A stretch of 64,000 nt of DNA. Origin: Candidatus Omnitrophota bacterium. Its GTDB lineage: Bacteria > Omnitrophota > Gorgyraeia > Gygaellales > Profunditerraquicolaceae. Of this stretch, positions 3,423-47,008 are shown in pieces; within the stretch, counting starts at the first letter, position 1; every line of letters starts with the position of its first letter. Both the position numbers and the translations under genes were made by a program. The stretch covers positions 10,956-74,955 of the forward strand of contig JALOCB010000002.1 in NCBI GenBank assembly GCA_023227985.1, in the 5' to 3' direction. A model generated the notes under the pieces. The model was given only the letters and a program-made list of their open reading frames with translations. It was not told the origin of the DNA and made no database searches.

Positions 3423-3626
3423 ATGCCTTTACCAAAGCAACGACATTCGCATACCCGCGGGAAAAAACGCAGGACCCATTGGAAAGTAATCCCGGCCGGC
3501 CTTATCGCCTGTCCGCAATGTAAATCATTAAAGAGGCCGCATCGTGTATGTCCGGTTTGCGGGAACTATGATGGAAAGCAGGCAGTGGCGATCAAAGTAA
3601 AAAAAGACAAAAAGAAGGCCGCTTAA
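3423..3626 (+). CDS. rpmF: 50S ribosomal protein L32
   Basis: MPLPKQRHSHTRGKKRRTHWK... with CPxC...CPxCG zinc ribbon; AGGAGA SD 6 nt upstream of ATG 3423; longer ORF from 3267 judged N-terminal over-extension. Confidence 0.85.
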   Translation: MPLPKQRHSHTRGKKRRTHWKVIPAGLIACPQCKSLKRPHRVCPVCGNYDGKQAVAIKVKKDKKKAA

Positions 3627-3656
3627 CTAAATCCTATCAGACAGGATCAAGAATAA

Positions 3657-4697
3657 ATGAAGATAATTGTTGATGCTATGGGCGGCGACTATGCCTCTGA
3701 TGTGGTGGTTGACGGAGCGATAGCCGCGGTTAAAGAATATCAGGTAGGGGTTGTCCTGGTCGGAGATGAAGCAAAGATACGCATGCGTATCAGAAAAATG
3801 AAGTTCGATTCCAAGCTTCTTTCGGTATATCCCGCATCCGAAGTCATTGAAATGCATGATTCTCCGGCTACCAGCGTCAGGAGGAAGCGTAATTCTTCTA
3901 TTGTGCTGGGCCTGAAATTGGTGCGCGACGGCCAGGGGGACGCGTTTTTCAGCGCCGGAAATACCGGGGCTGTTGTTTGCGCGTCCACGTTGACTTTAGG
4001 GATGCTGCCCGGCATCGAGCGGCCGGGTATCGCTACGTTAATGCCCAGCCTGAAAGGCGTTTCCCTGATTATCGACGTAGGGGCGAATATTGACCCTAAA
4101 CCCTTGCATATTTTGCAGTACGCGGTAATGGCAGATGCCTATGCACGTTATATCCTGCATAATCCCAATCCCAGGGTAGGCCTCTTGAACGTGGGCGAGG
4201 AGGAAAGCAAAGGGACCGTGCTTCTCAAGGATATCCATGAATCGTTATCCAAGACCCATCTGAATTTTATCGGCAACGTTGAAGGCAGGCATTTGTTCTC
4301 CGGAGATTGCGACATTATTGTCTGCGACGGGTTCGTGGGCAATGTCGCGTTAAAGGTTACGGAAAGCCTGGCTGAGGCGATGCAGATCTCTCTGAAAAAG
4401 CATATTTTTAGCAATCCCCTTGGTATTATCGGAGGCTTGCTTTTGCGGTCGAGCTTCAGGGCGTTTAAAAAAGAGATAGATTATTCTGAATACGGCGGGG
4501 CGCCTCTTTTAGGCGTCAACGGAGTATCGATAATCGGCCACGGCAGGTCGAATGCCAAAGCGATCAAGAACGCGATCCGGGTGGCCAAGGAGGAAGTGGA
4601 GAACAGGTTCAACGAGAAGGTCTTGGAGGCGATAAATTTGGAAGGATTGGTTCAAACTAAAGAAAATAACCCTCAAGTTGCGCCGTTAGACAAGTAA
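3657..4697 (+). CDS. plsX: phosphate acyltransferase PlsX
   Basis: 346 aa; MKIIVDAMGGD start and rpmF-plsX-fabH synteny. Confidence 0.9.
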   Translation: MKIIVDAMGGDYASDVVVDGAIAAVKEYQVGVVLVGDEAKIRMRIRKMKFDSKLLSVYPASEVIEMHDSPATSVRRKRNSSIVLGLKLVRDGQGDAFFSAGNTGAVVCASTLTLGMLPGIERPGIATLMPSLKGVSLIIDVGANIDPKPLHILQYAVMADAYARYILHNPNPRVGLLNVGEEESKGTVLLKDIHESLSKTHLNFIGNVEGRHLFSGDCDIIVCDGFVGNVALKVTESLAEAMQISLKKHIFSNPLGIIGGLLLRSSFRAFKKEIDYSEYGGAPLLGVNGVSIIGHGRSNAKAIKNAIRVAKEEVENRFNEKVLEAINLEGLVQTKENNPQVAPLDK

Positions 4698-4718
4698 TCC
4701 TTTAACAGAAAGAACTCA

Positions 4719-5696
4719 ATGAAAAAAGTAGGCGTATTGGGATTAGGGAAATACATACCGGAGAAGGTCCTGACCAACGCAGACCTGGAAAAGATGGTCG
4801 ACACCTCCGATGAATGGATCACTACCCGCACCGGCATTAAAGAGCGACATATAGCCGCTAAAGATGAAGCTACCAGCGACCTGGCCACTAAAGCCGCCAG
4901 GCAGGCTTTGAAAGCTGCTTCCCTGGAGCCACAGGATCTGGATATGATAATAGTGGCTACGGTTACTCCGGATATGCAGTTTCCGTCTACGGCTACTTTT
5001 GTCCAGGCGAATCTTGGGGCAAAGAAGGCTTTTTGTTTTGATATCTCGGCGGCCTGCGCGGGGTTCATTTACGGGATAACCATTGCCCAGCAGTTTATCG
5101 CCCGCGGAACGGTCAAGAACGCGCTGGTCATCGGCGCGGAGACCCTTACCCGGATAACCGATTGGCAGGACCGGAATACCTGCGTTCTTTTCGGGGACGG
5201 CGCCGGCGCAATGGTCCTGGGGGAGAGCACAGGTTCCGAGATCCTTTCGGCTTATCTGGGTTCAGACGGGTCCAACACGGGGTTGTTGAATATGCCGGGC
5301 GGAGGCTCGCGTAATCCGGCTACAGCCCAGACCGTTCAGGACAGGCTGCATTACATCAAGATGGACGGAAATGCGCTTTTTAAGATCGCGGTCACCAGTA
5401 TGGCTGACGCCGCGTTAATGGCTCTGAAAAACGCCGGGCTTAAATGCGCGGAAGTGAATTGGATCATCCCGCATCAGGCTAATCTGAGGATCATCAACGC
5501 TGTAGCGAAGAGGCTGGGATTCGTCAACGCGCAGGTTTATCTTAATATTGAGAAATACGGGAATATGTCCAGCGCCTGCGTGGCTATAGCTTTATGCGAG
5601 GCTGTCCAGGAAGGCAAGATCAAAAAAGGCGATATTGTGCTTCTGGACGCGTTCGGGGGCGGGTTGGTTTGGGGCGCGGTGATTATTAAGTGGTGA
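4719..5696 (+). CDS. fabH: 3-oxoacyl-ACP synthase III
   Basis: 325 aa; active-site Cys context FDISAACAGF, C-terminal HQAN and GGG motifs. Confidence 0.9.
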   Translation: MKKVGVLGLGKYIPEKVLTNADLEKMVDTSDEWITTRTGIKERHIAAKDEATSDLATKAARQALKAASLEPQDLDMIIVATVTPDMQFPSTATFVQANLGAKKAFCFDISAACAGFIYGITIAQQFIARGTVKNALVIGAETLTRITDWQDRNTCVLFGDGAGAMVLGESTGSEILSAYLGSDGSNTGLLNMPGGGSRNPATAQTVQDRLHYIKMDGNALFKIAVTSMADAALMALKNAGLKCAEVNWIIPHQANLRIINAVAKRLGFVNAQVYLNIEKYGNMSSACVAIALCEAVQEGKIKKGDIVLLDAFGGGLVWGAVIIKW

Positions 5697-15122: not shown

Positions 15123-15586
15123 AAAACGCGCAGGTGAGGAAGGCGAATATAAAGGATATAAAGCAGATACAGGGGTTGATAAATTATTTTGCTAAGCATG
15201 ACCTGATGCTGCCCCGTTCGTTGAATGAGTTGTACGAGAATATACGGGATTTCTGGGTCATCGACCTCAAAGGAAAGATCCTGGGCTGCGCCGCGGTGCA
15301 TATATCCTGGGATGATCTGGTGGAGATCAAGTCGGTGGCAGTGGATAAGGATCACCATAAGAAAGGCCTGGGCTTGCTGCTTTTAGGCGAATGCTTAAAG
15401 GAATCAAGGTCCCTGGGAGCCAAAAGGGTGTTTGTCCTGACCTATGCCCCGGATTTTTTCCGCAAGGCCGGATTCCGCAAGATCGAGCATTCGGCGCTGC
15501 CGCATAAGATATGGGCCGAATGCATCAACTGCCCGAAATTCCCGGATTGCAAGGAGACCGCGCTTTTAAAAAATATTGCAAAATAG
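15119..15586 (+). CDS. GNAT family N-acetyltransferase (short N-acetylglutamate-synthase-like)
   Basis: 155 aa; acetyl-CoA-binding Q/RxxGxG/A-like segment HKKGLGLLLL and a C-terminal CxxCxxxxxC cluster; overlaps glgC stop. Confidence 0.55.
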   Translation: MKNAQVRKANIKDIKQIQGLINYFAKHDLMLPRSLNELYENIRDFWVIDLKGKILGCAAVHISWDDLVEIKSVAVDKDHHKKGLGLLLLGECLKESRSLGAKRVFVLTYAPDFFRKAGFRKIEHSALPHKIWAECINCPKFPDCKETALLKNIAK

Positions 15587-15663
15587 AACAGGTATAGTAT
15601 AATTAAGTGTTTTTATATCAAAAGTGTTATGGGGTTGGGATTTGAGGCGGTATTAATATGACT

Positions 15664-15808
15664 GACACCCGCGCAATGGCACCCGACTTTATTGGAATAA
15701 GTCGGTGTGTGCTCGGTAGCACAGAATATGTGCCGGTGTGGTATCTTGAAAAATAGACACCCGGACCAATCGGAATATGGTCCGGTGTCGCATAGGTATG
15801 CGAGGAGG
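15664..15808 (+). repeat. family A palindromic units (ACACCCGN...caatNggaat...NCCGGTGT) ending in GCATAGGTATGC hairpin + GAGGAGG SD upstream of the acyl-CoA dehydrogenase gene
   Basis: GACACCCGGACC-aatcggaatat-GGTCCGGTGTC then GCATaggtATGC, GAGGAGG, ATG 15814; related half-units further upstream. Confidence 0.65.
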
Positions 15809-15813
15809 TTTGA

Positions 15814-16968
15814 ATGTTGGATTATTTGTTGACTGATGAACAGAAAATGATCAAGGAACTGGCCCATAAGATCGCCGAGGAAAAGGTCAGGCCGGTGGCA
15901 GCAAAGCACGATAAAACCGAGGAATTCCCCTGGGAGATTTTGAAGGTTATCGGGGAATCCGATCTTTTCGGATTGTTCATTCCCGAGGAATACGGCGGGA
16001 TGGGCGTTAATGTGCTCAACCTTTGTCTGGCTACCGAAGAATTATCCCGCGCCTGCGGCGGCATCGCGGTCTGCTATGCGGCTTCGGCTTTGGGGACATT
16101 CCCGATAGTATTGTTCGGCAATGACGAGCAGAAAAAGAAATACCTGCCGGACCTGGCCAGGGGGACCAAGATAGCGGCATTCGGCCTTACTGAGCCTGAG
16201 GCGGGTTCAGATGCCGGCGCGATCAAGACCACTGCCAGAAAAGAAGGCGATCATTACGTATTGAACGGGACAAAGCATTTTATCACCAACGGCGGCGAGG
16301 CTCAGACTTATACCGTGGTGGCGATGACCAATAAGGCTAAAGGGGCTCGCGGGGCCAGCGCTTTTATCGTGGAAAAAGGGACTAAAGGATTTACCTTCGG
16401 CAAGAAAGAAGATAAGATGGGTATCCGCGCCTCGATCACCCAGGAACTGGTCTTTAACGAATGCAAGATTCCCAAAGAGAACCTGCTTTCCAAGGAAGGC
16501 ATGGGTTTTATCGTGACAATGAAAACATTCGATATGTCCCGCCCCGGCGTTGCGGCGCAGGCCTTAGGTATAGCGCAGGGCGCGATGGAGCTGGCGGTAA
16601 AGTATGCCAAGCAAAGGCACCAGTTCGGCAAATCCATCTCCAGTTTTCAGGGGATACAGTGGATGCTGGCGGATATGGCCACTGAGATAGAGGCGGCCAG
16701 GGCATTGGTTTATTCTTCGGCCAGGATGGTGGACGCCGGAGTAAAAGACGTGGGCAGCGCCTCGGCGATGGCCAAGCTTTACGCCTCGGACGTGGCTATG
16801 AGGGTGACTAACGACGCTATCCAGATATTCGGCGGGTACGGTTATATGAAGGATTATCCGATCGAAAAATATATGCGTGACGCGAAGATCACTCAGATAT
16901 ACGAGGGTACCAACCAGATCCAGCGCAATATCATCGGTCTGCAGTTGATAAAAGATCTGGCCAAGTGA
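15814..16968 (+). CDS. acyl-CoA dehydrogenase (butyryl-CoA dehydrogenase-like)
   Basis: 384 aa ACAD fold; GFGLTEPEAGSD, catalytic Glu near C-terminus (IYEGTNQIQR); followed by etfBA. Confidence 0.85.
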   Translation: MLDYLLTDEQKMIKELAHKIAEEKVRPVAAKHDKTEEFPWEILKVIGESDLFGLFIPEEYGGMGVNVLNLCLATEELSRACGGIAVCYAASALGTFPIVLFGNDEQKKKYLPDLARGTKIAAFGLTEPEAGSDAGAIKTTARKEGDHYVLNGTKHFITNGGEAQTYTVVAMTNKAKGARGASAFIVEKGTKGFTFGKKEDKMGIRASITQELVFNECKIPKENLLSKEGMGFIVTMKTFDMSRPGVAAQALGIAQGAMELAVKYAKQRHQFGKSISSFQGIQWMLADMATEIEAARALVYSSARMVDAGVKDVGSASAMAKLYASDVAMRVTNDAIQIFGGYGYMKDYPIEKYMRDAKITQIYEGTNQIQRNIIGLQLIKDLAK

Positions 16969-16981
16969 TCCAAGGAGGGTA

Positions 16982-17356
16982 ATGGATAACGTACCCGAAA
17001 GAAGGAAATTCACCAGGGCGCTTTTATTCGCGGAGATCATCTTTAAGCGCAGGAAAACGCCGGATGAACCCGGACAGGTTTCAATAACCCGGAATATCGG
17101 CCGGGGAGGGTTGTGCATTATTTCCAGTATCAAGCTGGATGACGGAGAGATATTGGACCTGAGCATATCACTGCCTCAGGAAGATAAAGCGATCGAGGTC
17201 GCCAGCAGGGTGGTCTGGGTAAAAGAGTATACAATAAGCGAGACTATACAGGCAAAAAGATATACTGTGGGGGTGGAGTTTTTTGGCGGCAGCGAGCTGG
17301 CGATGGAAAAGATCGACCGCTATATAGCCAGCCACAACAACCCGGGAAAATCATGA
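16982..17356 (+). CDS. PilZ domain protein (putative c-di-GMP receptor)
   Basis: 124 aa; RRKFTR (RxxxR) and NIGRGG (D/N-x-S/G-x-G-G) PilZ signature motifs; 4-nt ATGA overlap with etfB start. Confidence 0.65.
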   Translation: MDNVPERRKFTRALLFAEIIFKRRKTPDEPGQVSITRNIGRGGLCIISSIKLDDGEILDLSISLPQEDKAIEVASRVVWVKEYTISETIQAKRYTVGVEFFGGSELAMEKIDRYIASHNNPGKS

Positions 17357-18150
17357 ACATAATCATTTGCATCAAGCAGGTTCCGGAAACAACAGAGGTC
17401 AGGATCAATCCCCAGACCAATACCTTGATCCGTGACGGGGTCAAATCAATTATCAACCCTTTTGATATGTACGCCATCGAAGAAGGCGTGCGGCTTAAGG
17501 AGCGGTTCGGCGGAAAGATCGTGGTGGTAACTATGGGCCCGCCGCAGGCTGAAGCCGCTTTGCGCGAAGCCATATCTATGGGCTGCGACGAGGCTATTCT
17601 GGTATCCGACCGCGCGTTCGCAGGAAGCGATACCTGGGCTACCAGCTATACCTTATCCTGCGCCATAAAAAGGATCGCCAAAGAGGCCGGCGGCATGGAC
17701 CTGGTGATCTGCGGAAAGCAGGCGTCCGACGGTGACACGGCGCAGGTAGGGCCGGGGATCTCCACGCACCTGGACATCCCCCAGATAACCTATGTCAAGA
17801 AGATCGAAGAGATAAAAGAAAAAAAGGCGCGGGTGGAAAGAATGACCGAAGAAGGCTATGACGTAATGGAAGCCCCCCTCCCGGCATTATTTACGGTAGT
17901 CAAAGAGATCAATCAGCCGCGCATACCTTCTTTGAAAGGGATGATGAAGGCCAAATCCGCGAAGATTACCCATTGGACGGCCAAGGATATTGACGCGGAT
18001 CCCCAGAACCTGGGGCTTTCCGGATCGCCTACGAACGTGGTAAGGATATTCACTCCGCCGCAGCGCCAGGGCGGCCAGATGCTTGCCGGGGAGACTCCGG
18101 AAATTGTTGAGAAACTGGCGGGATTAATCAAAAGCGAGATAATAGGGTAA
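17353..18150 (+). CDS. etfB: electron transfer flavoprotein beta subunit
   Basis: 265 aa; MNIIICIKQVPET start and EtfB fold motifs. Confidence 0.85.
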   Translation: MNIIICIKQVPETTEVRINPQTNTLIRDGVKSIINPFDMYAIEEGVRLKERFGGKIVVVTMGPPQAEAALREAISMGCDEAILVSDRAFAGSDTWATSYTLSCAIKRIAKEAGGMDLVICGKQASDGDTAQVGPGISTHLDIPQITYVKKIEEIKEKKARVERMTEEGYDVMEAPLPALFTVVKEINQPRIPSLKGMMKAKSAKITHWTAKDIDADPQNLGLSGSPTNVVRIFTPPQRQGGQMLAGETPEIVEKLAGLIKSEIIG

Positions 18151-18159
18151 ATAAAAACT

Positions 18160-19362
18160 ATGGGAATCCAGATCATCGATGATAAGTGCGTGGGATGCGG
18201 TTTGTGCGTTAAGGCCTGCCCGTTCGGGGCCGTTACTTCCGTAAACAAGAAAGCGATTATCGACCTGCATAAATGCAATCTCTGCGGGGCGTGCGTGCCG
18301 GCCTGCAAGTTCAAGGCCATATTGCTGGAAAAGCCTCAGGCTGTCCAGGCCAAGAAAGACCTCAGCGTTTATAAAGGGGTATGGGTGTTTGCCGAGCAGA
18401 AAAAGGGCAAAGTCCAGTCGGTTTCTTTTGAGCTGGTAGGCAAGGCCAGGGAGTTGGCGCAGAAATTGAATACCAGCGTTTCGGCGGTTCTTTTAGGAAG
18501 CAATGTCGAGATGGGCGCGCAGGAATTGATCGCCGGCGGCGCGGATAATGTTTACCTGGTGGATTCCCCGGAGTTGGCAAATTTCCTGGATGAGCCGTAT
18601 ACCAACGTATTGGTGAAATTGATCCAGAAATACAAACCGGAGATCGTCTTAAGCGGGGCTACGATAATCGGCAGGTCGCTGATGTCCAGGATCGCCATTA
18701 AGATCGACGCCGGGCTTACCGCGGATTGCACCGGATTGGATATTGATCCGGACAGGAAACTGCTTTTGCAGACCAGGCCTGCTTTCGGCGGAAACATTAT
18801 GGCTACGATCATCAGCCCGAATCACCGGCCGCAGATGTCCACGGTAAGGCATAAGGTTTTTGTCCAGCCGGCATTAGAGAAGCAGAGAAAAGGCAAGGTT
18901 ATTAAAGAGTCATTCCCGATCTCGGAATTTTCTTCCCGGACCTCGCTCATCGATGTCATTGAGGAAGTGGAGAACCTGGTGAATTTATCCGAAGCGGATA
19001 TCATAGTTTCCGGAGGAAGGGCCCTGGGCGGCCCGGATAATTTTCAGATGTTAAGGGACCTGGCCCAGGTATTAGGCGCGGCAGTGGGCTCTTCGCGCGC
19101 GGCGGTGGATGCCGGATGGATACCATATTCCCATCAGGTCGGCCAGACCGGAAGGACCGTGGCCCCTAAGCTTTATTTCGCCTGCGGTATATCCGGACAG
19201 ATCCAGCATCTGGTAGGTATGCAGTCCTCCAAGGTGATCATTGCGATCAATAAAGATCCTGATGCGCCTATATTCAAAGTGGCTACGTATGGTATTGTGG
19301 GGGACATCTTCGAGATAGTGCCGGCTTTGACCAAAAAATTCAAGGAAGTCTTGAGAAAATAA
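18160..19362 (+). CDS. etfA: electron transfer flavoprotein alpha subunit with N-terminal 2x[4Fe-4S] ferredoxin domain
   Basis: 400 aa; two CxxCxxCxxxCP motifs (CVGCGLCVKACP, CNLCGACVPAC) followed by EtfA FAD-binding domain (SGQIQHLVGM). Confidence 0.85.
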   Translation: MGIQIIDDKCVGCGLCVKACPFGAVTSVNKKAIIDLHKCNLCGACVPACKFKAILLEKPQAVQAKKDLSVYKGVWVFAEQKKGKVQSVSFELVGKARELAQKLNTSVSAVLLGSNVEMGAQELIAGGADNVYLVDSPELANFLDEPYTNVLVKLIQKYKPEIVLSGATIIGRSLMSRIAIKIDAGLTADCTGLDIDPDRKLLLQTRPAFGGNIMATIISPNHRPQMSTVRHKVFVQPALEKQRKGKVIKESFPISEFSSRTSLIDVIEEVENLVNLSEADIIVSGGRALGGPDNFQMLRDLAQVLGAAVGSSRAAVDAGWIPYSHQVGQTGRTVAPKLYFACGISGQIQHLVGMQSSKVIIAINKDPDAPIFKVATYGIVGDIFEIVPALTKKFKEVLRK

Positions 19363-19521
19363 TCCCGTCTAACGCCTCAATCCTGTAAAACCCTTCATGT
19401 AGTGATCTGCACACCTTTGCATATTTTAGCATAATTATGTTCTGTTATAGCTAACTATGGCTATAATGTGTCCTTTAAGCTTCTGGTTGTATGTCTATGT
19501 TAAGATATGTAAATATTTTCC

Positions 19522-19550
19522 TTGACAAAAAACATCTTTTTCTTTATAAT
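19522..19550 (+). promoter_or_regulatory. sigma70-type promoter, exact consensus TTGACA-17-TATAAT, driving the small HTH gene (and possibly smc)
   Basis: TTGACA 19522-19527, 17-nt spacer, TATAAT 19545-19550, in an AT-rich spacer. Confidence 0.7.
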
Positions 19551-19577
19551 TGAAACAAGTAAGTTTTGTTTAAACGT

Positions 19578-19652
19578 GACACCCAACTTAATCGGCACCT
19601 TGCCTTAGGGTATAGGCAAGTATCCCGCTCTCTGCGGGAAAAAGTTGGTGTT
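19578..19652 (+). repeat. family A-type structured element in the 5' leader of the HTH gene
   Basis: Outer stem ACACCCAACTT/AAGTTGGTGTT enclosing AATCGG, CCTTGCC/GGCAAG and CCCGC-tctct-GCGGG hairpins. Confidence 0.55.
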
Positions 19653-19675
19653 AAGTCCGTACTTAAGGAAAACAT

Positions 19676-19852
19676 ATGTTCGCGAATGACCTGATGACAA
19701 TAGAAGACTTGGCAGCTTACCTTAAAGTAAGCCGCCGGACTATTTATGAATGGCTCAAGCAGAATAAGGTCCCGGCGTTAAAGATCGTCGGGCAATGGCG
19801 TTTTAAAAAAGATAAAATAGATTCATGGATGGAAGCGCAGGCCCATGCATAG
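19676..19852 (+). CDS. small helix-turn-helix DNA-binding protein (excisionase/MerR-like HTH_17 family)
   Basis: 58 aa below the ORF-track cutoff; LMTIEDLAAYLKVSRRTIYEWLKQNKVPALKIVGQWRF matches excisionase-family HTH; AAGGAA SD 7 nt upstream; exact consensus promoter upstream. Confidence 0.6.
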   Translation: MFANDLMTIEDLAAYLKVSRRTIYEWLKQNKVPALKIVGQWRFKKDKIDSWMEAQAHA

Positions 19853-19904
19853 ATCATATCCGGATAACGGAATACGCGTTTTTAATTTTAATTAGGGAGG
19901 GATA

Positions 19905-22900
19905 ATGTATTTTAAAAGATTAGAGATCGTAGGGTTCAAATCGTTTATGGATAAGACTGTTTTGAATTTTGAGCCCGGGGTGACCGCGGTGGTCGGCCCG
20001 AACGGCTGCGGAAAATCCAATATCTTCGACAGCATACGCTGGGTGCTGGGAGAGCAGTCTGCCAAATCCCTGCGCGGCTCGGCGATGGAAGACGTGATCT
20101 TCAACGGTACGGATACCAAGCCGGCGCTGGGTATGGCTGAGGTCAGCCTGACCTTTGACAATGAGCAGCGGCATTTTAATGTGGACCAGGATGAGGTGGT
20201 CATCACCCGCAGGATCTTCCGTTCCGGGGAAAGCGAATACCTGCTGAATAAAAATCTGGGCAGGTTGAAGGATATCCAGGACCTTCTTTTAGGCACGGGT
20301 ATCGGCGCGGAGAGCTATTCCATTATCGCCCAGGGAAAGATCGACCTGATCTTGAGCTCGCGCCCGGAAGACCGGCGCATGGTTTTTGATGAGGCGTCGG
20401 GGATCACCAGGTATAAATCCCAGAAAAGAGAGGCCTTGCGCAGGCTGGAAGAGACCGAACAAAATCTGCTCAGGCTTAATGATATTATAGTGGAAGTAAA
20501 ACGCTCTATCGGCTACCTGGAGAGGCAGGCGAACAAGGCCCGCAGGTTCCAGATCTGTTTTGATGAATTGAAAGCCAAGGAGATAAAGCTGGCCCTGGCG
20601 CAGAAGAAGAATTTGATACAAGAGATCTCCGGGATCACTATATATCTGGACAGCCTGCGTAACAGGGAAGAGGCGTTATTGGCCCAGATAAAAGCGGACG
20701 AGAACAACATTGGCCAGCGCAATATGGAATTGAAGGGGCTGGAGGCGGATCTCGCCAATATGAAGAACGCGATCATGAATTCCGAGAACCTCATCGAGCG
20801 CAACCGGCAGCATACCTCTTTTAACCACGAGCGGATCAAAGAGCTGGGCAATACCAAGACCTATCTTGAATCCCAGATACTGCAGACCCGGGAGCGCGTG
20901 GTTAAGGACGAGGAGAAGCTTAAAGGCCTCAAGGAAGAGCAGGAAGCCATCCGCAAGAGTTTTGAGGAGAAATCTCTGATCTTAAAGACCCATGAAGACA
21001 AGCTTAATGATCTGGTTGGCGGCATAAAGAGGTCTCATGACATTATCGCCCAGGACAAAAAGAACATTATGGACCTGGCTAATATGACCACCCAGGTGAA
21101 GAACGAGCTTACTGATTTTGCTTCCCGGGAACAGGTTTTTATCGCCAGGCAGAAAAGGCTGGACCTGGAAAAGGCCAAGATCGCCGAGGAAAGATCCCAG
21201 GTGGAGGGCAATCTCACGGAATTGGATAAAGAGTTGATGGCCGGCGAAAGCCTGCACCAGGAGCTTTGCGCCAGGATCGCGGCGGCCAAGGCTGAGCTGG
21301 ACGCGGAAACCCTGAAATTAAAACAGGCGGAAGAGGAATTAGAGACCCTGGAAAGGCAGAAGACCGGGCTTATATCGCAGAAGGAATTCTTGGAGAAGCT
21401 GAAGAGCCAGTACGAGGATATCAGCGAATCGATGAACGCGACGATCTATCTGGATAAGCTCCCGGCTGAGACTATCACCGGGCTGGTGGTAAAGCTTAAA
21501 GCCGTGCAGGGCGGCCCTGACCCGGTGAATAACGATCTGTCCGCCCAGGGATACAAAATGTCCGGCGAGGCCAAGCCTATCGACCTGGACGCGCAGAGGG
21601 TTAATGATAAGATTAAGGAGATCGAGGAAAAGATTTTAGGGTTGGCCGGGACTAAACTCCTTCTGGAAACCCGGATCAAGGAATTGACTGCTTCCAACCA
21701 GGCGCTCGATCAGCAGGAGCAGGACCAGGAAATGGCCCTGGCTAACAAGAAGACCGTGCACCACACGATCCTCGAGCAATTCAATAAGATCAAGGAAGAA
21801 GAGGAGCTTATTGCTTTGGAGCTGTCCGATGTCCTGGCGGAATTGAAGAGCCTGGAAGAAAAGATACTGGGACTTAAGGCCAGATTGGCCGGGTTGGAAA
21901 ATAAAGACCGGGAGTTGGAGGCTTCTATACACGCGGAGCAGGAAAGCATCAGCCATAATTCGCGGATAAAAGAAGAAGTCCTGGTGGAGATGACCCAGGT
22001 CAAGACCGTATTGGAGAATCTCGGCCAGCGCCTGAATTCCGAAGATGAAACTTTAAAGGCTTTGGAAGACGCCTGCCGCCAGGGTAACGAGGATATACAT
22101 AACCAGGAGAACAAGATCAAGGAAACTGTTTCCCGGCAGCAGGGTCTGGAAGAGGAGATTAAGAACCTGGACTCGGAGAATCTGGTGCTGGTAAAAGAAA
22201 TAGACGCTCAACGCAATACCCTTTCCGAAGCCGATAAGAAATACGCGGCGATGTCGGAGAGCGTGAACGGCATAATCTCCCGGATCGACGCCAAAAGAAA
22301 CGACCATGAGATATTAAAAGAGAATATTTATTCGGAACAGATGCGCCAGAAAGACATAGAGTTCAAATACCAGACCATAAAAGATAGGATGAACTCGGCA
22401 TATAAGATAGACCTGGACAGGCCGGAGACGATCAGTGCCGCGGATAGCGCTCTGCAAGTTGTGCCTGTTGAGCAAGCCCCTGTTTCCGCGGCTGCGCCGG
22501 AGGATAATAGCCGGGATCAGGCAGATGTCGTTTTTCCTGTTGTCACAGACCCGGTATTATTGTTAACCGGGCCGTCAGCGCCGCAGGAACCGGTAGAGGA
22601 AGAGGTGATTGATGAGGGGCTGTTGTCCGAGGAGATCGAAAAACTTAAAGAGCGCATTGATTCCTACGGCACGGTCAACCTGGTGGCTATAGCCGAATAC
22701 GATGAATTAAAGAAGCGTTATGATTTTCTGAATCAGCAGCAGGCTGATCTTGCCGGGGCTAAGGAATCGTTGCAGGAAGCGATCCGCAAGATCAACCATA
22801 CCACCAAGAAAATGTTTATGGAGACGTTCGAGAAAGTGCGCGAGGAATTCCGCAATTATTTCAAGATGCTCTTTAACGGGGGGGACGCGCAGGTTTACCT

Positions 22901-23303
22901 GATCGATGAGAATGATCCGCTGGAATCCGGCATAGAGTTGGTCTGCCGGCCTCCGGGGAAGAAGCTGCAGAATGTCCTGCTGCTTTCCGGCGGCGAAAAA
23001 TCGCTTTCGGCTATCGCGCTGATCTTCGCCATATTCAAGGTCAAGCCCGCGCCTTTCTGCATCCTTGACGAGATCGACGCCGCGCTGGATGAGTCCAACG
23101 TGGACCGCTTCAGCAGGATGTTCTCGGAATTCACCGGGACCTCGCAGTTCATAGTGATAACTCATAATAAAAGGACGATCGCCAATGCCAATGTAATGTA
23201 CGGTATTACTATGCAGGAATCCGGCGTGTCCAAGATAGTATCGGTTAAGTTCGCGGAATCAAAAACAAAGAGTGAACCCGCGCCCCAGCCAGTCGCCGCT
23301 TAG
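19905..23303 (+). CDS. smc: chromosome segregation protein SMC
   Basis: 1132 aa; N-terminal Walker A GPNGCGKSN, long coiled coils, hinge, C-terminal LSGGEKSL signature and Walker B ILDEIDAALD. Confidence 0.92.
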   Translation: MYFKRLEIVGFKSFMDKTVLNFEPGVTAVVGPNGCGKSNIFDSIRWVLGEQSAKSLRGSAMEDVIFNGTDTKPALGMAEVSLTFDNEQRHFNVDQDEVVITRRIFRSGESEYLLNKNLGRLKDIQDLLLGTGIGAESYSIIAQGKIDLILSSRPEDRRMVFDEASGITRYKSQKREALRRLEETEQNLLRLNDIIVEVKRSIGYLERQANKARRFQICFDELKAKEIKLALAQKKNLIQEISGITIYLDSLRNREEALLAQIKADENNIGQRNMELKGLEADLANMKNAIMNSENLIERNRQHTSFNHERIKELGNTKTYLESQILQTRERVVKDEEKLKGLKEEQEAIRKSFEEKSLILKTHEDKLNDLVGGIKRSHDIIAQDKKNIMDLANMTTQVKNELTDFASREQVFIARQKRLDLEKAKIAEERSQVEGNLTELDKELMAGESLHQELCARIAAAKAELDAETLKLKQAEEELETLERQKTGLISQKEFLEKLKSQYEDISESMNATIYLDKLPAETITGLVVKLKAVQGGPDPVNNDLSAQGYKMSGEAKPIDLDAQRVNDKIKEIEEKILGLAGTKLLLETRIKELTASNQALDQQEQDQEMALANKKTVHHTILEQFNKIKEEEELIALELSDVLAELKSLEEKILGLKARLAGLENKDRELEASIHAEQESISHNSRIKEEVLVEMTQVKTVLENLGQRLNSEDETLKALEDACRQGNEDIHNQENKIKETVSRQQGLEEEIKNLDSENLVLVKEIDAQRNTLSEADKKYAAMSESVNGIISRIDAKRNDHEILKENIYSEQMRQKDIEFKYQTIKDRMNSAYKIDLDRPETISAADSALQVVPVEQAPVSAAAPEDNSRDQADVVFPVVTDPVLLLTGPSAPQEPVEEEVIDEGLLSEEIEKLKERIDSYGTVNLVAIAEYDELKKRYDFLNQQQADLAGAKESLQEAIRKINHTTKKMFMETFEKVREEFRNYFKMLFNGGDAQVYLIDENDPLESGIELVCRPPGKKLQNVLLLSGGEKSLSAIALIFAIFKVKPAPFCILDEIDAALDESNVDRFSRMFSEFTGTSQFIVITHNKRTIANANVMYGITMQESGVSKIVSVKFAESKTKSEPAPQPVAA

Positions 23304-23304
23304 T

Positions 23305-23459
23305 AGGGGACGGTTCCTGCGATCATTATTCATTGCGGCGTAATAAGTTGCAATAAGGCATTTGTCAAGTCCGCAGGAAATGATTTACAATAAATTTGTC
23401 AATAGGCTTGTTGTAATTCGTTGGAGGGTAGTTAGTTAGAGCAAGAGGAACCGTCCCCT
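23305..23459 (+). repeat. family C element: 155 bp bounded by 14-15 bp TIR (T)AGGGGACGGTTCCT / AGGAACCGTCCCCT, between smc and the convergent GGDEF gene
   Basis: Perfect inverted repeat seen directly; internal near-direct repeat TTGCAATAAGGCATTTGTCAA / TTACAATAAATTTGTCAAT. Confidence 0.7.
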
Positions 23460-23464
23460 TTGTT

Positions 23465-24664
23465 TTAGCCGCAGGTGTTGTTCTTGCCTTTTTTCTTCGC
23501 TTCGTAGAGCGCTTTGTCTGAATAAGATCCGAGTTCCGCGGCAGTGTTGCCGTTCTCCGGGAATGTGGCCAGCCCAAGGCTGGTAGTGATGGTCTTTTGG
23601 GGAAGGTTCTCCTGATGGATGAAGGGGTGCTTGGCGATATTCTCCCTGAACCTCTCGGCGATCATAAACGCCTCTTTTTTATCGGTATAAGGCAGGATGA
23701 TCGCGAATTCTTCTCCGCCATAACGGCAGACATAATCCATTTTTCTGGATTGATTCTTGAGCAGGTTGGCCATTTCTTTGAGGATATGATCGCCGGCCTG
23801 GTGGCCGAAGGTGTCGTTGTATACCTTGAAATCGTCGATATCCAGCATAAGCAGGCTGAACTGGGTGGATGTGGCTTTGCTTTTTTCCACTTCCACGCCC
23901 AGCAGGTATTGGAAGTACCCGTGGTTCCAAAGGTTGGTCAGGGAGTCCAGGTGCACCCGGATAACGGTCTTTTCATATAACTGGGAATTTTCGATAGCCA
24001 GGCCTGCCTGGTTGGCGAGCATTCGCAGCATCCGCAGCTCGTCTTTGCCGATAGGTTTATGGGTGATGAAATTATCCGCCATAATGATACCGTTGACCTT
24101 GTCTTTGGCTTTCAGCGGGACCAGGACCACTTCGTCGGACTTAAGGATCTGTATGACCGGGTCATTCCGGTAGTTCTGAATGGTCTCCTGGGTCAGGTGC
24201 AAAGGCATTCCTTCCGTCACGCATAAAGAAAGAAGGTTGTTTTTTTGTTCGCTTAACGGCATTTTGATCAACTGGACCTGTTGGCTAAAACCGGATTTTG
24301 GGGTATTATCCGATACCTTGTAGGCGTTGATCAGGTCTTCCATATCCATTTTTTCCTGTTCGACATAGTTCCAGACCCGGTTGGCTTCTTCCCCTGATTC
24401 CGGGCCGATCGCGGTTTTTCCCTCAATGATATTTTCTTTTTCGTTGACCAGGAAGAGGACCGCCCGGTTGAATCCCAGGCCGATGTGTGCGGTTACCCCG
24501 GTAAGGATGATGTAAAGGATCTCATCCAGTTTGAGGGTGGTGCGCATAGCGTTGGAGATCTCGTAAAGGATCGTCAGCTCGGATTTTGTGCGTTCCAATT
24601 CCTGCTTTATTTTGGCTAATTCGTCCATTGGTTTAAATTTAACACAATTTTGCCTGGCTGTCAA
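23465..24664 (-). CDS. diguanylate cyclase, coiled-coil + GAF + GGDEF domains
   Basis: 399 aa; GGEEF active site (RYGGEEFAI), upstream GAF-like region; only sizeable minus-strand gene in the window. Confidence 0.85.
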   Translation of the reverse strand: MTARQNCVKFKPMDELAKIKQELERTKSELTILYEISNAMRTTLKLDEILYIILTGVTAHIGLGFNRAVLFLVNEKENIIEGKTAIGPESGEEANRVWNYVEQEKMDMEDLINAYKVSDNTPKSGFSQQVQLIKMPLSEQKNNLLSLCVTEGMPLHLTQETIQNYRNDPVIQILKSDEVVLVPLKAKDKVNGIIMADNFITHKPIGKDELRMLRMLANQAGLAIENSQLYEKTVIRVHLDSLTNLWNHGYFQYLLGVEVEKSKATSTQFSLLMLDIDDFKVYNDTFGHQAGDHILKEMANLLKNQSRKMDYVCRYGGEEFAIILPYTDKKEAFMIAERFRENIAKHPFIHQENLPQKTITTSLGLATFPENGNTAAELGSYSDKALYEAKKKGKNNTCG

Positions 24665-24689
24665 CCTAAGCTGAAATATGTTAGAAATC

Positions 24690-24982
24690 CCGGTAAATTA
24701 CGTCTATTATATATAGAGAACCAATCCAATTGGAGGCATTGGAATGCAGGATTATCGGCACCCAACCTAAATCATCCGCCATATAAGAATGGCGGGTGTG
24801 TCGCTATTTACGCCAGGAAAGGTTGGTGTCGCAACCGTATGTTAAACCCGATCTTATTGGCGCCTGCCATTTTTGGATATGGCAGCATACGCTTTTGCGT
24901 TAATAGATCGGTGTTGCATCCGTATATTACACCCGATCTTATTGGATAGATCGGTGTTGCATCCGTATGCAAGGGGGGGGGT
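24690..24982 (+). repeat. cluster of family A palindromic units in the divergent GGDEF/recA intergenic region, ending in TGCATCCGTATGCAAGG + G9 tract
   Basis: CCGCCATATAAGAATGGCGG palindrome; two copies of AGATCGGTGTTGCATCCGTAT and CACCCGATCTTATTGG; G-homopolymer 24973-24981. Confidence 0.6.
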
Positions 24983-24992
24983 GATTATTTGT

Positions 24993-25021
24993 TTGACAGC
25001 CAGACGGCTGTGGGATATAAT
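24993..25021 (+). promoter_or_regulatory. recA promoter, exact consensus TTGACA-17-TATAAT, with palindrome CAGCCAGACGGCTG in the spacer (candidate operator)
   Basis: TTGACA 24993-24998, TATAAT 25016-25021; inverted repeat CAGCC-agac-GGCTG between them. Confidence 0.7.
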
Positions 25022-25068
25022 ATTTTCTCTAAAACTATATAAAATACGCTACGTAAATGGAGGCAGGA

Positions 25069-26127
25069 ATGGCAAAAGACCCGAAATCCGGCACTAAAGA
25101 TGAAGAAGCTGTTTTGAATGATAAAAAGGAGCTTTCCGACCGTCAAAAAGCCCTGGAATTGGCGCTTTCGCATATTGAAAAGCAGTTTGGCAAAGGCTCG
25201 ATAATGAAATTAGGCGGTAAGATCAAGATTGATGTCGAGGTCATTCCCACCGGCGCGCTTACTTTGGATTCCGCTTTGGGCGTAGGCGGTTTTCCCCGGG
25301 GCAGGGTCATTGAAATATTCGGCCCCGAGGCCTCAGGTAAAACTACTCTTACTTTGACCGCCATAAGGGAGATCCAGAAAAAAGGCGGGGTCGCCGCTTT
25401 TATTGACGCGGAACACGCCTTTGATTCTACTTACGCTAAAAAAATAGGCCTGAACCTGGATGACCTGCTTATTTCACAGCCGGATACCGGTGAGCAGGCT
25501 TTAGAGATCACCGAGACCCTGGTCCGTTCCAACGCGGTTGACCTGGTCGTGGTTGATTCAGTCGCGGCTTTGACGCCCCGGGCTGAGATCGAAGGTGAAA
25601 TGGGCGATTCGCATATGGGCCTGCAGGCCAGGCTTATGTCCCAGGCTATGCGTAAATTGACCAGCGCGATCAGCAAATCCCGGACCAGCGTTATCTTTAT
25701 CAATCAGATCCGCGAGAAGATCGGGGTGATGTTCGGCAATCCCGAAACTACTCCCGGCGGCAGGGCTTTGAAATTCTATTGTTCGGTCAGGCTGGATGTG
25801 CGCAGGATCGCTTCGCTTAAGGCCGCGGATAATACGGTTTTTGGCGGCAGGGTCAGGGTTAAAGTGGTCAAGAATAAAGTCGCTCCGCCGTTCAGAGAGG
25901 CGGAGTTCGATATACTGCATGATGAAGGAATTTCCAAGGCGGGAAGCGTAATCGACGCCGGTCTGAAATTAGAGTTACTGCAGAAATCCGGGACATGGAT
26001 ATCTTTCCAGGACCAGAAGCTCGGCCAGGGCAGGGACGCTGCGGTTAAGACTTTGAAGGAACAGCCGAAACTGCAGGACAGCATTGAGAAAGAGATCAGG
26101 AAGAAGATCACCGCGGGATTGGGATAA
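25069..26127 (+). CDS. recA: recombinase RecA
   Basis: Walker [11 protein letters not shown]1/L2 loops; start set at ATG 25069 with GGAGG SD (the ORF-track start at 25057 is 4 codons further upstream). Confidence 0.95.
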
Positions 26128-26175
26128 GGGAAGGGTGTTGTGTAACTTGTTGCCACCCTGCGCAGATCGGTTTTG

Positions 26176-26297
26176 CGCCGGTGTTGACTAGGTAGTCACA
26201 CCCAATTTGATTGGTAAGGTTGGTGTTGGGCAAGTAATGCACACCCGGCGCCAATGGGAATTGCGCCGGTGTTGCATTCGTATGCAAGGAGGGTTGG
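26176..26297 (+). repeat. family A palindromic units ending in TGCATTCGTATGCA hairpin + AGGAGGgttGGAGG SD directly upstream of htrA
   Basis: CACACCCGGCGC-caatgggaatt-GCGCCGGTGTTG then GCATtcgtATGCAAGGAGGG, ATG 26301; additional ACACCCAA...TTGGTGTTG unit upstream. Confidence 0.65.
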
Positions 26298-26300
26298 AGG

Positions 26301-27854
26301 ATGAAAGCGAAGAGGTTGGGATGGGCTTTAATGACTTTATCTGTTGGTCTGGTCATCGGGTTGTGCATTGCCGCGGGGTTGAACATGCCGCAAAAGGCGC
26401 ACAGCCAGGCTGCGAAGCAGGATCGGGTCGTTAGCCTGCAGCCGCAGACAGTCCCTTCTTTGGATGGTTCGCGCATGGAAGACGCAATCATTAACGTCGC
26501 CGGCACAGTCGGCAAGGCTGTGGTCTCCATAACGGCGGAGCACATTACTAAGTTCCCCGGGACGACCAGAAGGTTTTATTTCCGCAGCCCGGAGGGCGGC
26601 GATAAACCATCTTTCGGAGAGGATGACCCTTTCAGCAAGTTCTTCGACGAATTTTTCGGTGAGATGCCGGAAAGGGAATACCGCCAGGCCGGTGTTGGGT
26701 CAGGGGTGATCGTCGATCACCGCGGATATATCCTGACCAATCAGCATGTTATCGCCGACGCGGACAAGCTTAGCATAGTCCTTCCTGACGGCCGGGAATT
26801 CAAAGGTGAGGTAACCGGGCAGGACAGCCGTTCAGACCTGGCGATCGTCAAGATCGACGCGGCTAATTTGCCTGTAGCTGTTATGGGGGATTCCGACAGC
26901 CTCAGGATCGGGCAATGGGTAGTAGCTATCGGAAATCCTTTTGGTTTTTCGATGCAGAATCCCGAGCCCACTGTGACTACCGGCGTGATCAGCGCCCTGC
27001 ACCGGACCTTGGGCAGGACTTTGTCCCGCAGCCGGGATTATAATGACCTTATTCAGACCGACGCGGCGATAAACCCGGGTAATTCCGGTGGCCCGTTGGT
27101 CAATCTTAAAGGCGAGATTGTGGGGATCAACGTCGCCATATTTTCCACCTCCGGCGGCAGCCAGGGCATAGGTTTTGCCATACCTTCAAATAACGCCAAA
27201 CGGATCGTCTCCCTGTTGATCGAAGGCAAGAAGGTGAAGTACGGGTGGCTGGGCATCGCGGTGCAGGATCTGACCGAAGACCTGGTTAAATATTTTAAAT
27301 TGGCCGACAAGAACGGCGCTATGGCGATCAAGGTGCTCAAGGGCAGCCCCGCGGAAAAGGCCGGGATAAAGGCCAATGACGTGATCCGGCAGTTCGACAA
27401 TACGCGGATCAATACGGTCAAAGAGCTGTTAAGCGCGGTGAATAAGGCGGAAGTGGGTAAGAAGGTCAAGGTTGCCTTGATCCGCGATAAAAAAGATATG
27501 ACCCTGGATATTATCGTTGAAGAGCGGCCTGCGGATCAGGATGACGCTGAGCCGGGAACCGCCGAACAGGTTAAGCCGGGAAGCTGGAGAGGCATGGATA
27601 TCGCCGAGCTTGATTCCGCTTCCGGCAAAAGGTTTAGGTTAAGGGACAGCGAAGGCGTGGTAGTTACGAATGTCGAGCCGAACAGCCCGGCGGATGACGC
27701 GGGGATCGTACCCGGGGATGTTATCCTGGAAGTTAATGAACAGCCGGTGAGCAACAGCGCCGATTTTAAGAAGGCGGTCCAGGGGCTGAAAGGCGCGGTG
27801 TTGGTTTCCTTGAACCGCGGCTACTTGATCATCAAAGAAAAAAGTGAGAAATAG
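26301..27854 (+). CDS. htrA: periplasmic serine endoprotease DegP/HtrA (trypsin domain + 2 PDZ)
   Basis: 517 aa; N-terminal membrane anchor, catalytic His/Asp/Ser (GNSGGPL), two PDZ domains. Confidence 0.85.
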   Translation: MKAKRLGWALMTLSVGLVIGLCIAAGLNMPQKAHSQAAKQDRVVSLQPQTVPSLDGSRMEDAIINVAGTVGKAVVSITAEHITKFPGTTRRFYFRSPEGGDKPSFGEDDPFSKFFDEFFGEMPEREYRQAGVGSGVIVDHRGYILTNQHVIADADKLSIVLPDGREFKGEVTGQDSRSDLAIVKIDAANLPVAVMGDSDSLRIGQWVVAIGNPFGFSMQNPEPTVTTGVISALHRTLGRTLSRSRDYNDLIQTDAAINPGNSGGPLVNLKGEIVGINVAIFSTSGGSQGIGFAIPSNNAKRIVSLLIEGKKVKYGWLGIAVQDLTEDLVKYFKLADKNGAMAIKVLKGSPAEKAGIKANDVIRQFDNTRINTVKELLSAVNKAEVGKKVKVALIRDKKDMTLDIIVEERPADQDDAEPGTAEQVKPGSWRGMDIAELDSASGKRFRLRDSEGVVVTNVEPNSPADDAGIVPGDVILEVNEQPVSNSADFKKAVQGLKGAVLVSLNRGYLIIKEKSEK

Positions 27855-45693: not shown

Positions 45694-45712
45694 TTTTACG
45701 TTAATCGAGGCG

Positions 45713-45885
45713 TTAAGTCAGTGAGGACTGTGTCAGTCGCTCGAACAGTCCTCGACCTTCCGGCCTGCACCCGGGCGTATGGCACCTCGCCATATAGGAG
45801 TGGCGAGTATGTCGCTTTCTGCGTCAGAACGTCCGGTGTGGCCCTGTGGCCAACGAAACTCGCTTTGTGACACAGCCCGCACTGC
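45713..45885 (+). repeat. family B MITE-like element (long copy, ~173 bp) with a nested family A-like insert, followed by a T-run; DUF190-SPFH spacer
   Basis: TTAAGTCAGTGAGGACTGTGTCA...TGACACAGCCCGCACTG; internal CACCCGGGCGTATGGCACCTCGCCATATAGGAGTGGCGA resembles family A units. Confidence 0.7.
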
Positions 45886-46874: not shown

Positions 46875-46923
46875 TTACTGATTTTGCGGGTCCTGGCCTG
46901 CCGGCAGGCAGGCTGTCGAGCCG

Positions 46924-47008
46924 TTAAGTTAGTGAGGCCTGTGTCAGTCGCTCGGACAGTCCTCGGCCTTTGGCCTGCGGAACTCGCTTTGTGACACAGC
47001 CCTCACAT
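46924..47008 (+). repeat. family B MITE-like element (short ~85 bp copy), just upstream of the HicAB islet
   Basis: TTAAGTTAGTGAGGCCTGTGTCAGTCGCTCGGACAGTCCTCGGCC...GGAACTCGCTTTGTGACACAGCCCTCAC; matches the ends and core of the 45713 copy, lacks its middle segment. Confidence 0.7.

Follow-up and report, generated by a model that had tools for sequence, protein, structure and literature searches.

A BldC/Xis-class helix-turn-helix gene linked to smc across Candidatus Omnitrophota, with a conserved phased repeat array as candidate operator and a generic RNA module as leader

The window analyzed here is a 64-kb (64,000-nucleotide) stretch of contig JALOCB010000002.1 (assembly GCA_023227985.1) from a Candidatus Omnitrophota bacterium, in which the locus of interest includes acd, etfA, hth, smc, GGDEF, recA and htrA. 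Our subject is hth, a forward-strand gene (positions 19676–19852) that lies between etfA and the chromosome-condensing gene smc and encodes a 58-residue MerR-like winged helix-turn-helix protein of the HTH_17 type with a BldC/Xis/RacA fold. A sequence-only reading of the stretch had picked out a 58-residue excisionase-family protein at this place, and the open reading frame (ORF) is present with exactly the sequence quoted there. Around it, on the same strand, lie a putative sigma-70-type promoter (19522–19550), a structured leader of 74 nt (19579–19652), an hth–smc spacer of 52 nt (19853–19904) that holds the smc Shine-Dalgarno sequence GGGAGGG (19895–19901), and smc itself (19905–23303, 1132 residues), which is probably co-transcribed with hth. 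A protein of identical sequence is encoded in the Candidatus Omnitrophota metagenome-assembled genome GCA_028711865.1, where the neighbors are acd, PilZ, etfB, etfA, hth, smc, GGDEF, recA, htrA, recX and alaS.

The hth protein scores 64.5 bits against Pfam HTH_17 (PF12728; cutoff 27; domain at residues 6–55) and 56.7 bits against TIGR01764 'excise', the excisionase family of DNA-binding proteins (cutoff 28.8), and it also matches PHROG 66, 'excisionase and transcriptional regulator'; both curated cutoffs and the winged-helix fold place it in HTH_17 and TIGR01764. An AlphaFold2 model (mean predicted local distance difference test, pLDDT, 88.6) shows a MerR-like winged helix made of a short strand (residues 6–7), helices 9–16 and 20–28, strands 35–37 and 40–44, and a final helix 45–57. 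The best PDB neighbors of this model found with Foldseek are the BldC–DNA complexes 6AMA/6AMK, the RdfS excisionase (8DGL, template modeling (TM) score 0.82) RacA (5I44), the GIsul2 excisionase (8C3T) and Pukovnik Xis (4J2N), followed by MerR N-terminal domains, and a plasmid centromere-binding protein is also among the structural neighbors. At the level of sequence, a profile of hth reaches the BldC/Xis/RacA proteins weakly (E = 0.3 for 6ama), and the NCBIfam RacA models give 16–17 bits against cutoffs of 170–265. As in BldC, the 58 residues form a single winged helix-turn-helix domain, with neither coiled coil nor effector domain. Assignment to the MADS protein MAD1 (68.8 bits against NF047737; PADLOC mad1, E = 6e-12) was considered and rejected, since the score lies below the equivalog cutoff of 80 and the gene calls in the surrounding 20 kb include neither restriction/modification genes nor others of MADS type. 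A profile search found no paralogue of hth in the window.

A search for homologues and their genomic contexts revealed that the small ORF is conserved, with at least 273 homologues and a fixed place between etfA and smc. The best 120 listed share 67–97% identity with hth, nearly all are 56–95 residues long, and those with a named source are all labeled Omnitrophica or Omnitrophota. In an alignment of 34 hth sequences 24 of the 58 columns are invariant, and nucleotide identity in the core of the gene, calculated over 83 sequences, is 0.89, 0.95 and 0.55 at codon positions 1, 2 and 3, respectively, a pattern that indicates strong purifying selection on the protein. The orthologous loci were collected from one genome per species; a relative occurs in 189 species, and the best 80 loci were analyzed, with ~8 kb of DNA sampled per genome. 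We found smc directly 3' of hth in 80 of 82 evaluable species or loci, at protein identities of 67–86%, and etfA on the 5' side in most of the best 80; at one locus a porin-like gene takes the place of smc. The smc start follows immediately after hth in 74 loci including the window, and six seeming exceptions are due to an smc split by an intein. We conclude that hth is a genuine core gene of Candidatus Omnitrophota and that its product, a MerR-like winged helix that stands alone, belongs to the BldC/Xis/RacA structural class.

The spacing of the two genes points to joint transcription. The hth–smc spacers of the 74 loci are short, with a median of 33 nt, and many measure 9–15 nt and hold a Shine-Dalgarno sequence only; the 52-nt spacer of the window contains no terminator-like site. 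Because the spacer is short and lacks a terminator, we infer that hth and smc are co-transcribed; together with the synteny, this suggests that they probably form an operon with hth in the promoter-proximal position. The intein that splits smc lies in the Walker A motif (GPNGCGK/CL...VHN/SNIF, slashes marking the junctions) in six species (L011, L018, L032, L034, L065 and L075); it is ~540 residues long in L011 (about positions 3590–5340) and in L018, and far shorter in L034. The hth–smc spacer of another locus (L053, 2396–2761) is unusually long at 357 nt and holds, by eye, an extra ORF of ~110 residues resembling a PilZ domain. We found no description in the literature searched of an hth–smc operon, of an Omnitrophota helix-turn-helix/SMC pairing or of the genes upstream of smc.

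The promoter that would serve this operon consists of a -35 box TTGACA (19522–19527), a 17-nt spacer and a -10 box TATAAT (19545–19550), just as the sequence-only reading had it, and scores 12 of 12 against the sigma-70 consensus; its hexamers, its spacing within the 16–18 bp range and its placement upstream of a gene are all those of a sigma-70-type promoter, as predicted from sequence, and put the likely transcription start near 19557. Only two perfect consensus promoters occur in the window, before hth and recA, versus 0.01 expected, and among the 76 found in all the DNA fetched for promoter and array searches (1.38 Mb in total) 69 are the hth promoter of one locus or another. Of 83 loci, 81 have a promoter of the form TTGAC(A/T), 16–18 nt, TAnnnT at the equivalent position, and 66 have TATAAT without a mismatch. 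In 24 of the 81 (for example L011, L012, L024, L066 and L070) the hth start codon lies 6–10 nt past the -10 box, and because this distance does not exceed 10 nt, the hth mRNA is probably leaderless there; other species have hth leaders of 20–170 nt.

Directly 5' of the -35 box lies a near-invariant block with the phylum consensus ATATGTYAAAGAATGTAAAGATTYTCC. In the window it reads CTATGTTAAGATATGTAAATATTTTCC (19495–19521, forward strand), includes ATGTTAAGAT and ATGTAAATAT as direct repeats, and runs right up to the -35 box. Over positions -27 to -1 from that box, mean pairwise identity is 0.76, as compared with 0.46 for the 17-nt promoter spacer, 0.55 for the third codon positions of hth and 0.28–0.40 farther 5' of the block. 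The 20-mer core of the block is found in 53 of 80 loci, once per locus and at the hth promoter only. Among 120 unrelated metagenome loci (739 kb) it occurs in one, L124, which is itself an hth–smc locus; in exact pattern searches of the fetched loci this was the only occurrence of the block away from the hth promoters of the orthologous set, and no further copy of the putative operator exists in the window at up to three mismatches. The remaining seven perfect consensus promoters in the 1.38 Mb lack the block, which argues that it is not a generic UP element.

The repeats extend beyond the block as a phased array. Relative to the T of TTGACA, the motif TG(C/T)(A/T) peaks at -74, -64, -54, -34, -24 and -14. 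Within the region -150 to -31, which leaves out the two proximal repeats, a single 10-bp phase holds 110 of the 223 TG[CT][AT] occurrences (49%) in 72 orthologous promoters, versus a mean of 14% and a maximum of 19% in 500 shuffles, and a period of 10 is enriched 4.9-fold versus 1.7–2.5-fold for periods of 9, 11 and 12. The bases around the phased repeats have diverged to 30–40% identity. In the window the distal repeats (19408–19431, forward strand) are TGCA at 19408, TGCA at 19418 and AGCA at 19428, 10 bp apart; at -114, -104 and -94 from the T of TTGACA they keep the helical phase of the proximal repeats, 40 bp farther out. The spacer that carries them is AT-rich (GC 0.28–0.36 versus 0.43–0.64 in the flanks) and holds a palindrome TATAGC-N8-GCTATA (19446–19465), both of which the sequence-only reading had remarked upon. 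Both are present, but the palindrome is not conserved: with 80 loci aligned on the -35 box its columns carry little information and its segment shows a mean pairwise identity of 0.37–0.40. The palindrome probably has no function of its own, while the etfA–hth spacer, to judge from the alignment, is otherwise a conserved regulatory region. We propose the proximal block as the candidate operator for the hth protein.

On balance, we favor a reading in which the core gene hth heads an hth–smc operon and autoregulates it through the phased array, the leader being a separate, generic RNA module. In such a circuit, transcription of hth and smc would start at the perfect sigma-70-type promoter, the hth protein would assemble head-to-tail on the TG(C/T)A array in the manner of BldC and the excisionases on their direct repeats, this assembly would regulate hth–smc transcription, and the 74-nt leader would stand outside the loop. 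Autoregulation is suggested because a BldC-class protein sits behind a conserved direct-repeat array phased at 10 bp. BldC is the founding member of the small MerR-like winged helix-turn-helix regulators (PDB 6AMA/6AMK), and in Streptomyces it binds direct repeats as head-to-tail multimers, with four tracts one helical turn apart protected (PMC5859096). Like BldC, hth is a stand-alone winged helix of ~60–70 residues without dimerization or effector domain (Foldseek TM 0.70–0.79), and like BldC sites, its promoter carries direct repeats phased at 10 bp, to which binding of hth is predicted. Unlike BldC, with which it shares only ~20% identity, hth is fixed to smc and restricted to Omnitrophota, and the repeats differ as well, TG(C/T)A or ATGTnAAAGA in the hth array and AATT-N4-C for BldC. 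Excisionases and recombination directionality factors (RDFs) such as lambda-type Xis, Pukovnik Xis (4J2N), RdfS (8DGL) and the GIsul2 Xis (8C3T) share the domain family and fold of hth, at TM scores up to 0.82, and are described as oligomerizing on DNA (PMC11963761). In contrast to them, hth has no integrase, att site or mobile element and is a vertically inherited core gene whose chromosomal context is fixed.

Several observations weigh against this reading. The NCBIfam BldC model NF033787 gives hth 18 bits against a cutoff of 77, which leaves it outside the BldC family as defined by that model. The phasing statistics are drawn from related sequences, so that shuffles overstate their independence. 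In the closest relatives of the window (L004–L007, L084 and L087) a single repeat is left of the proximal block, or the block has degenerated, with an unchanged recognition helix in the protein. With ~8 kb sampled per genome, further copies of the array may lie elsewhere in the same genomes. Lastly, the position of the array, about -49 to -109 from the predicted start, suits activation, an architectural role or curvature as well as it suits repression.

Because an array 5' of the -35 box also suits an activator, an architectural role or curvature, we retain two rival explanations. The first, which we regard as possible though on the doubtful side, is that the conserved block and phased repeats make the hth–smc promoter strong, either as an activating stretch that is UP-element-like or intrinsically curved or as a binding place for some other conserved factor, hth then acting elsewhere in the genome. 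A place directly 5' of the -35 box is the classical position of UP elements and upstream activators, and the array is A/T-rich with phased A-runs. What is conserved in the block, however, is particular bases (ATGT, TGCA) and not base composition, and the block is missing from the seven other perfect consensus promoters. The motif accompanies hth also in the absence of a following smc, as L022 shows, and it is the BldC/Xis fold class that is known for reading direct repeats at a spacing of one helical turn.

The second rival makes hth an architectural SMC partner, comparable to RacA with ram or ParB with parS, which would coat the array and load, anchor or position SMC, with autoregulation as a secondary matter. 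The near-obligate linkage of hth and smc across the phylum speaks for such a role, as do the chromosome-anchoring RacA and the plasmid centromere-binding protein among the structural neighbors and an array of up to six to seven helical turns, longer than a simple operator. RacA of Bacillus (5I44) is likewise a MerR-like winged helix-turn-helix protein, and the linkage of hth to smc suggests a common theme of chromosome organization; unlike hth, RacA has ~184 residues and a C-terminal coiled coil, and its DNA-bound form is a symmetric dimer. The 1.38 Mb gave no second copy of the motif, though, one species has hth and the array without smc downstream, and co-regulation alone would explain the operon linkage. 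We consider the SMC-partner role improbable. The combined possibility, that the array is both the autoregulatory operator and an SMC loading or anchoring site, and hth with its array a minimal ParB/parS or RacA/ram analogue in Omnitrophota, we likewise think unlikely.

The leader of hth turned out to belong to a different story. As the sequence-only reading had described, though at 75 rather than 74 nt, it is a nested hairpin, a long unit of the hairpin family termed family A, which folds into a three-way junction (19579–19652, forward strand) and represents a lineage-specific insertion in the 5' untranslated region. Its outer stem (19579–19589 with 19642–19652) pairs ACACC(C)AACTT with AAGTTGGTGT (in RNA, ACACC(C)AACUU/AAGUUGGUGU), leaving one bulged C, and encloses the loop start AAUCGG (19590–19595), an inner hairpin (19596–19623) and a second hairpin (19624–19638). 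The unit is followed by a mini-hairpin AAGUCCGUACUU (19653–19664) and the Shine-Dalgarno sequence AAGGA (19665–19669), and the hth start codon lies 24 nt past GGUGU, the canonical spacing of the module. The predicted fold within 19558–19680 has a minimum free energy of -40.9 kcal/mol (z = -4.2). A terminator or attenuator was considered and rejected, as there is no U-run and no terminator call. No Rfam 15 family matched the 64 kb at gathering score, which leaves the leader outside every Rfam family, and permissive scans of 19300–19950 and 15500–27000 returned chance-level matches only (E ≥ 0.16).

The leader indeed belongs to one family with the units before acd, recA and htrA, as had been noted, and shares the AATCGG loop start with them. 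The loop start occurs in window units at 15680, 15758, 24930, 26154, 26199 and 26242 and in long units at 24759, 24846 and 45768, and the window holds nine family A-type hairpins, eight of them on the forward strand, versus ~1 expected from shuffles. None of the 80 orthologous hth leaders has family A. In L084, the closest relative that has been sequenced, whose hth protein is 86% identical, the leaders of acd, recA and htrA lack it as well. Alignment with L007 shows a common leader start (TGAAAyAA...) and a common Shine-Dalgarno and start region, AAGGAAAACAnATG, between which ~95 nt are inserted in the window. The comparison indicates that the family A leader was inserted in this lineage into an otherwise short or absent leader. 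Interiors close to that of the long unit of the window occur in L023 and L193.

Elsewhere in the operon family A recurs. A covariance model of its short form (R1) gave 12 matches at E < 0.01 in the 576 kb of orthologous loci scanned, nine of them in the hth–smc spacer of eight species (L010, L025, L027, L030, L046, L049, L052 and L058), and with the long form in the same spacer of L023 this makes nine species in all. In metagenomes, a scan with one stem variant yielded 91 genuine copies and 32 GC-rich chance matches. A mini-hairpin, AAGGAGG and an ORF follow in 69 of the 91, with the start codon 21–31 nt past GGTGT in 45 of the 69 (mode 25). The proteins encoded 3' of these copies comprise 68 distinct sequences and 76 Pfam families, each recurring at most three times, and the Pfam-matched ones include ribosomal L31, L20 and S3, SMC, NDK, PhoU, PstS-type binding proteins, Amt and PilT-type ATPases. 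Judged by eye, the N-termini of further proteins encoded 3' of the module identify them as GroEL, HU, a cold-shock protein and ribosomal L7/L12, S16 and L9. A co-directional ORF ends no more than 260 nt upstream in 51 of 72 evaluable copies, and in 28 its stop codon lies within 22 nt of the hairpin. Because upstream co-directional ORFs end so close to it, the module is mostly intercistronic; in the metagenome loci L088–L207 (e.g. L096, L101, L110, L127, L133, L181 and L192) it often follows directly on the preceding gene's stop codon.

The stems covary. In an alignment of 15 sequences five of ten pairs change on both sides and 95.7% of the cells pair, versus 29–44% with the partner slid; in an alignment of 117 matches seven of ten pairs change on both sides, and nine different compensating stems occur among 26 matches that were not chosen by the search pattern. 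This covariation is partly circular, as the first scan required pairing and the second alignment was fitted to the model; neither the conserved loop nor the flanks were imposed. Five aligned long units form three-way junctions with compensatory changes in 12 of 24 pairs, and nested copies have the six-part architecture of the hth leader in the window. Across units of 27 to 74 nt the fixed parts are the CACCC/GGUGU base and the loop. We conclude that family A is a generic RNA module shared within Omnitrophota, in which a CACCC...GGUGU hairpin that has a bulged C comes first, a mini-hairpin second and a Shine-Dalgarno sequence last.

These results decide against a third explanation, in which the hth protein binds family A palindromes, has an operator in its own leader and regulates a dispersed regulon of acd, recA, htrA and other genes. 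The sequence-only reading had offered the leader as either an autoregulatory operator or a shared RNA element, and hth as the possible regulator of the regulon. The shared RNA element stands. The operator falls with its absence from the orthologous leaders and the covariation of its stems, and the regulon with the L084 leaders and with at least 68 unrelated genes that family A precedes. In its favor, family A does recur in the hth–smc operon, in the hth leader here and in the hth–smc spacer of nine other species. Covarying stems and variable length are, however, an RNA-type signature, and because the stems covary and length ranges from 27 to 74 nt, family A cannot be a duplex-DNA operator; the genes 3' of its copies cover 76 Pfam families, those for ribosomal proteins among them, and the copies lie mostly between cistrons, and the phased array is a far better operator candidate. 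Judged on these sequence features, family A is neither a duplex-DNA operator for hth nor a specific regulon, and binding of the hth protein to it is very improbable.

We found no description of the family A motif in the literature searched, and with no entry in Rfam it is an undescribed RNA motif. Wherever it occurs, its effect is probably on the mRNA, be it on translation initiation, insulation, processing or stability. A riboswitch was rejected as the main interpretation of the long form, as the 27-nt short form already has the conserved parts and the downstream genes are unrelated. CsrA sites were also considered; GGA occurs in many loops, but neither the invariant CACCC/GGUGU base nor loops of 11 nt agree with such sites, and GGA is missing from several copies, that of hth included. 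Tblastn with CsrA and Hfq queries gave no match in 1.4 Mb, a sample too small to be informative.

Family A resembles dispersed repeats in other respects. Repetitive extragenic palindromes (REPs), of which a 5' GTAG is the hallmark, and bacterial interspersed mosaic elements (BIMEs) are likewise imperfect hairpins, short and scattered, that have an invariant base and a bulge and come in tandem or nested copies, and as with them the copy number of family A differs between near-identical genomes. Unlike REPs, which lie in either orientation and at no set distance from start codons and whose copies within a genome are near-identical, family A appears to lack the 5' GTAG and occurs on the sense strand only, at a fixed distance before the start codon (mode 25 nt) and ahead of a mini-hairpin and Shine-Dalgarno sequence, and its stems differ and covary within one genome, features that set it apart from the REP type and from repeats associated with REP-associated tyrosine transposases (RAYTs). 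As in the REP/RAYT setting, Y1_Tnp (IS200/RAYT-like) transposase genes are found in some Omnitrophota loci (L055, 1258–1686; L050, 3314–3739; L126, 3792–4211), in L050 and L055 inserted between etfA and the hth promoter, and these enzymes are possible mobilizers of hairpin repeats in the phylum. Other lineages carry different hairpin repeats at equivalent leaders: GTAGGGGC...GCCC precedes hth, recA and htrA in L084 and L087 (L084, 9930–9990, 15000–15040 and 16180–16220; L087, 9925–9965), and CAGATTGC...GCAATGACGAGGAG hairpins occur in several other hth leaders (L010, L025, L046, L061 and L063). Either hairpin repeats have hot spots in these leaders, or selection favors a hairpin at such places.

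Further family A units lie between GGDEF and recA. Three units at 24757–25021 end in a mini-hairpin and G-run (AAGGGGGGGG) and stand upstream of, and outside, the transcript expected from the perfect recA promoter (24993–25021); the arrangement may involve a second start farther upstream or else a small ORF. In the GenBank assembly of the same organism that is 99.9% identical to the window (L001), the GGDEF–recA spacer has one extra family A long unit of 85 nt (L001 14953–15500, compared with 24844–24929 here), which reflects either copy-number variation or collapse of tandem units during assembly. Farther along the window, two repeat pairs at 45705–45882 and 46916–47006 (55 nt at 91% identity; 40 nt at 88% identity) flank a 267-residue ORF (46017–46820), and a family A long unit (45768–45838) lies between the members of the 55-nt pair.

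The weakest explanation, and the other half of what the sequence-only reading had suspected, is that hth is an excisionase or RDF left beside smc by an integrated element; the TIGR01764 and PHROG 66 matches and the AT-rich upstream region fit it, but we give it almost no credence, because etfA–hth–smc order is conserved across Omnitrophota, with hth at the identical position in 80 of 82 species, among housekeeping neighbors, with no integrase gene called within 10 kb of hth, no tRNA found by Rfam at gathering score in the 64-kb window, and an AT-rich region that is itself conserved. A functional excisionase or RDF was rejected on similar grounds, there being no called integrase and a fixed synteny instead of the patchy distribution of mobile elements.

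The family A module, which stands upstream of genes for ribosomal proteins, GroEL, HU, SMC and dozens more, is a candidate for a class of translation, processing or insulator elements that would be new. The hth protein adds to the BldC/Xis class a member whose fixed linkage to smc is without precedent and whose phased array is conserved across the phylum. To our knowledge, the control of SMC expression and loading outside model bacteria is largely unknown. In the scan described here smc is firmly tied to a very small BldC-like protein, and the non-coding sequence ahead of the two is among the most conserved in the DNA that was fetched; hth and its array provide a concrete protein–DNA candidate pair in an uncultivated phylum. 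If the autoregulation reading is true, the case would extend the BldC-type reading of direct repeats to a housekeeping operon.

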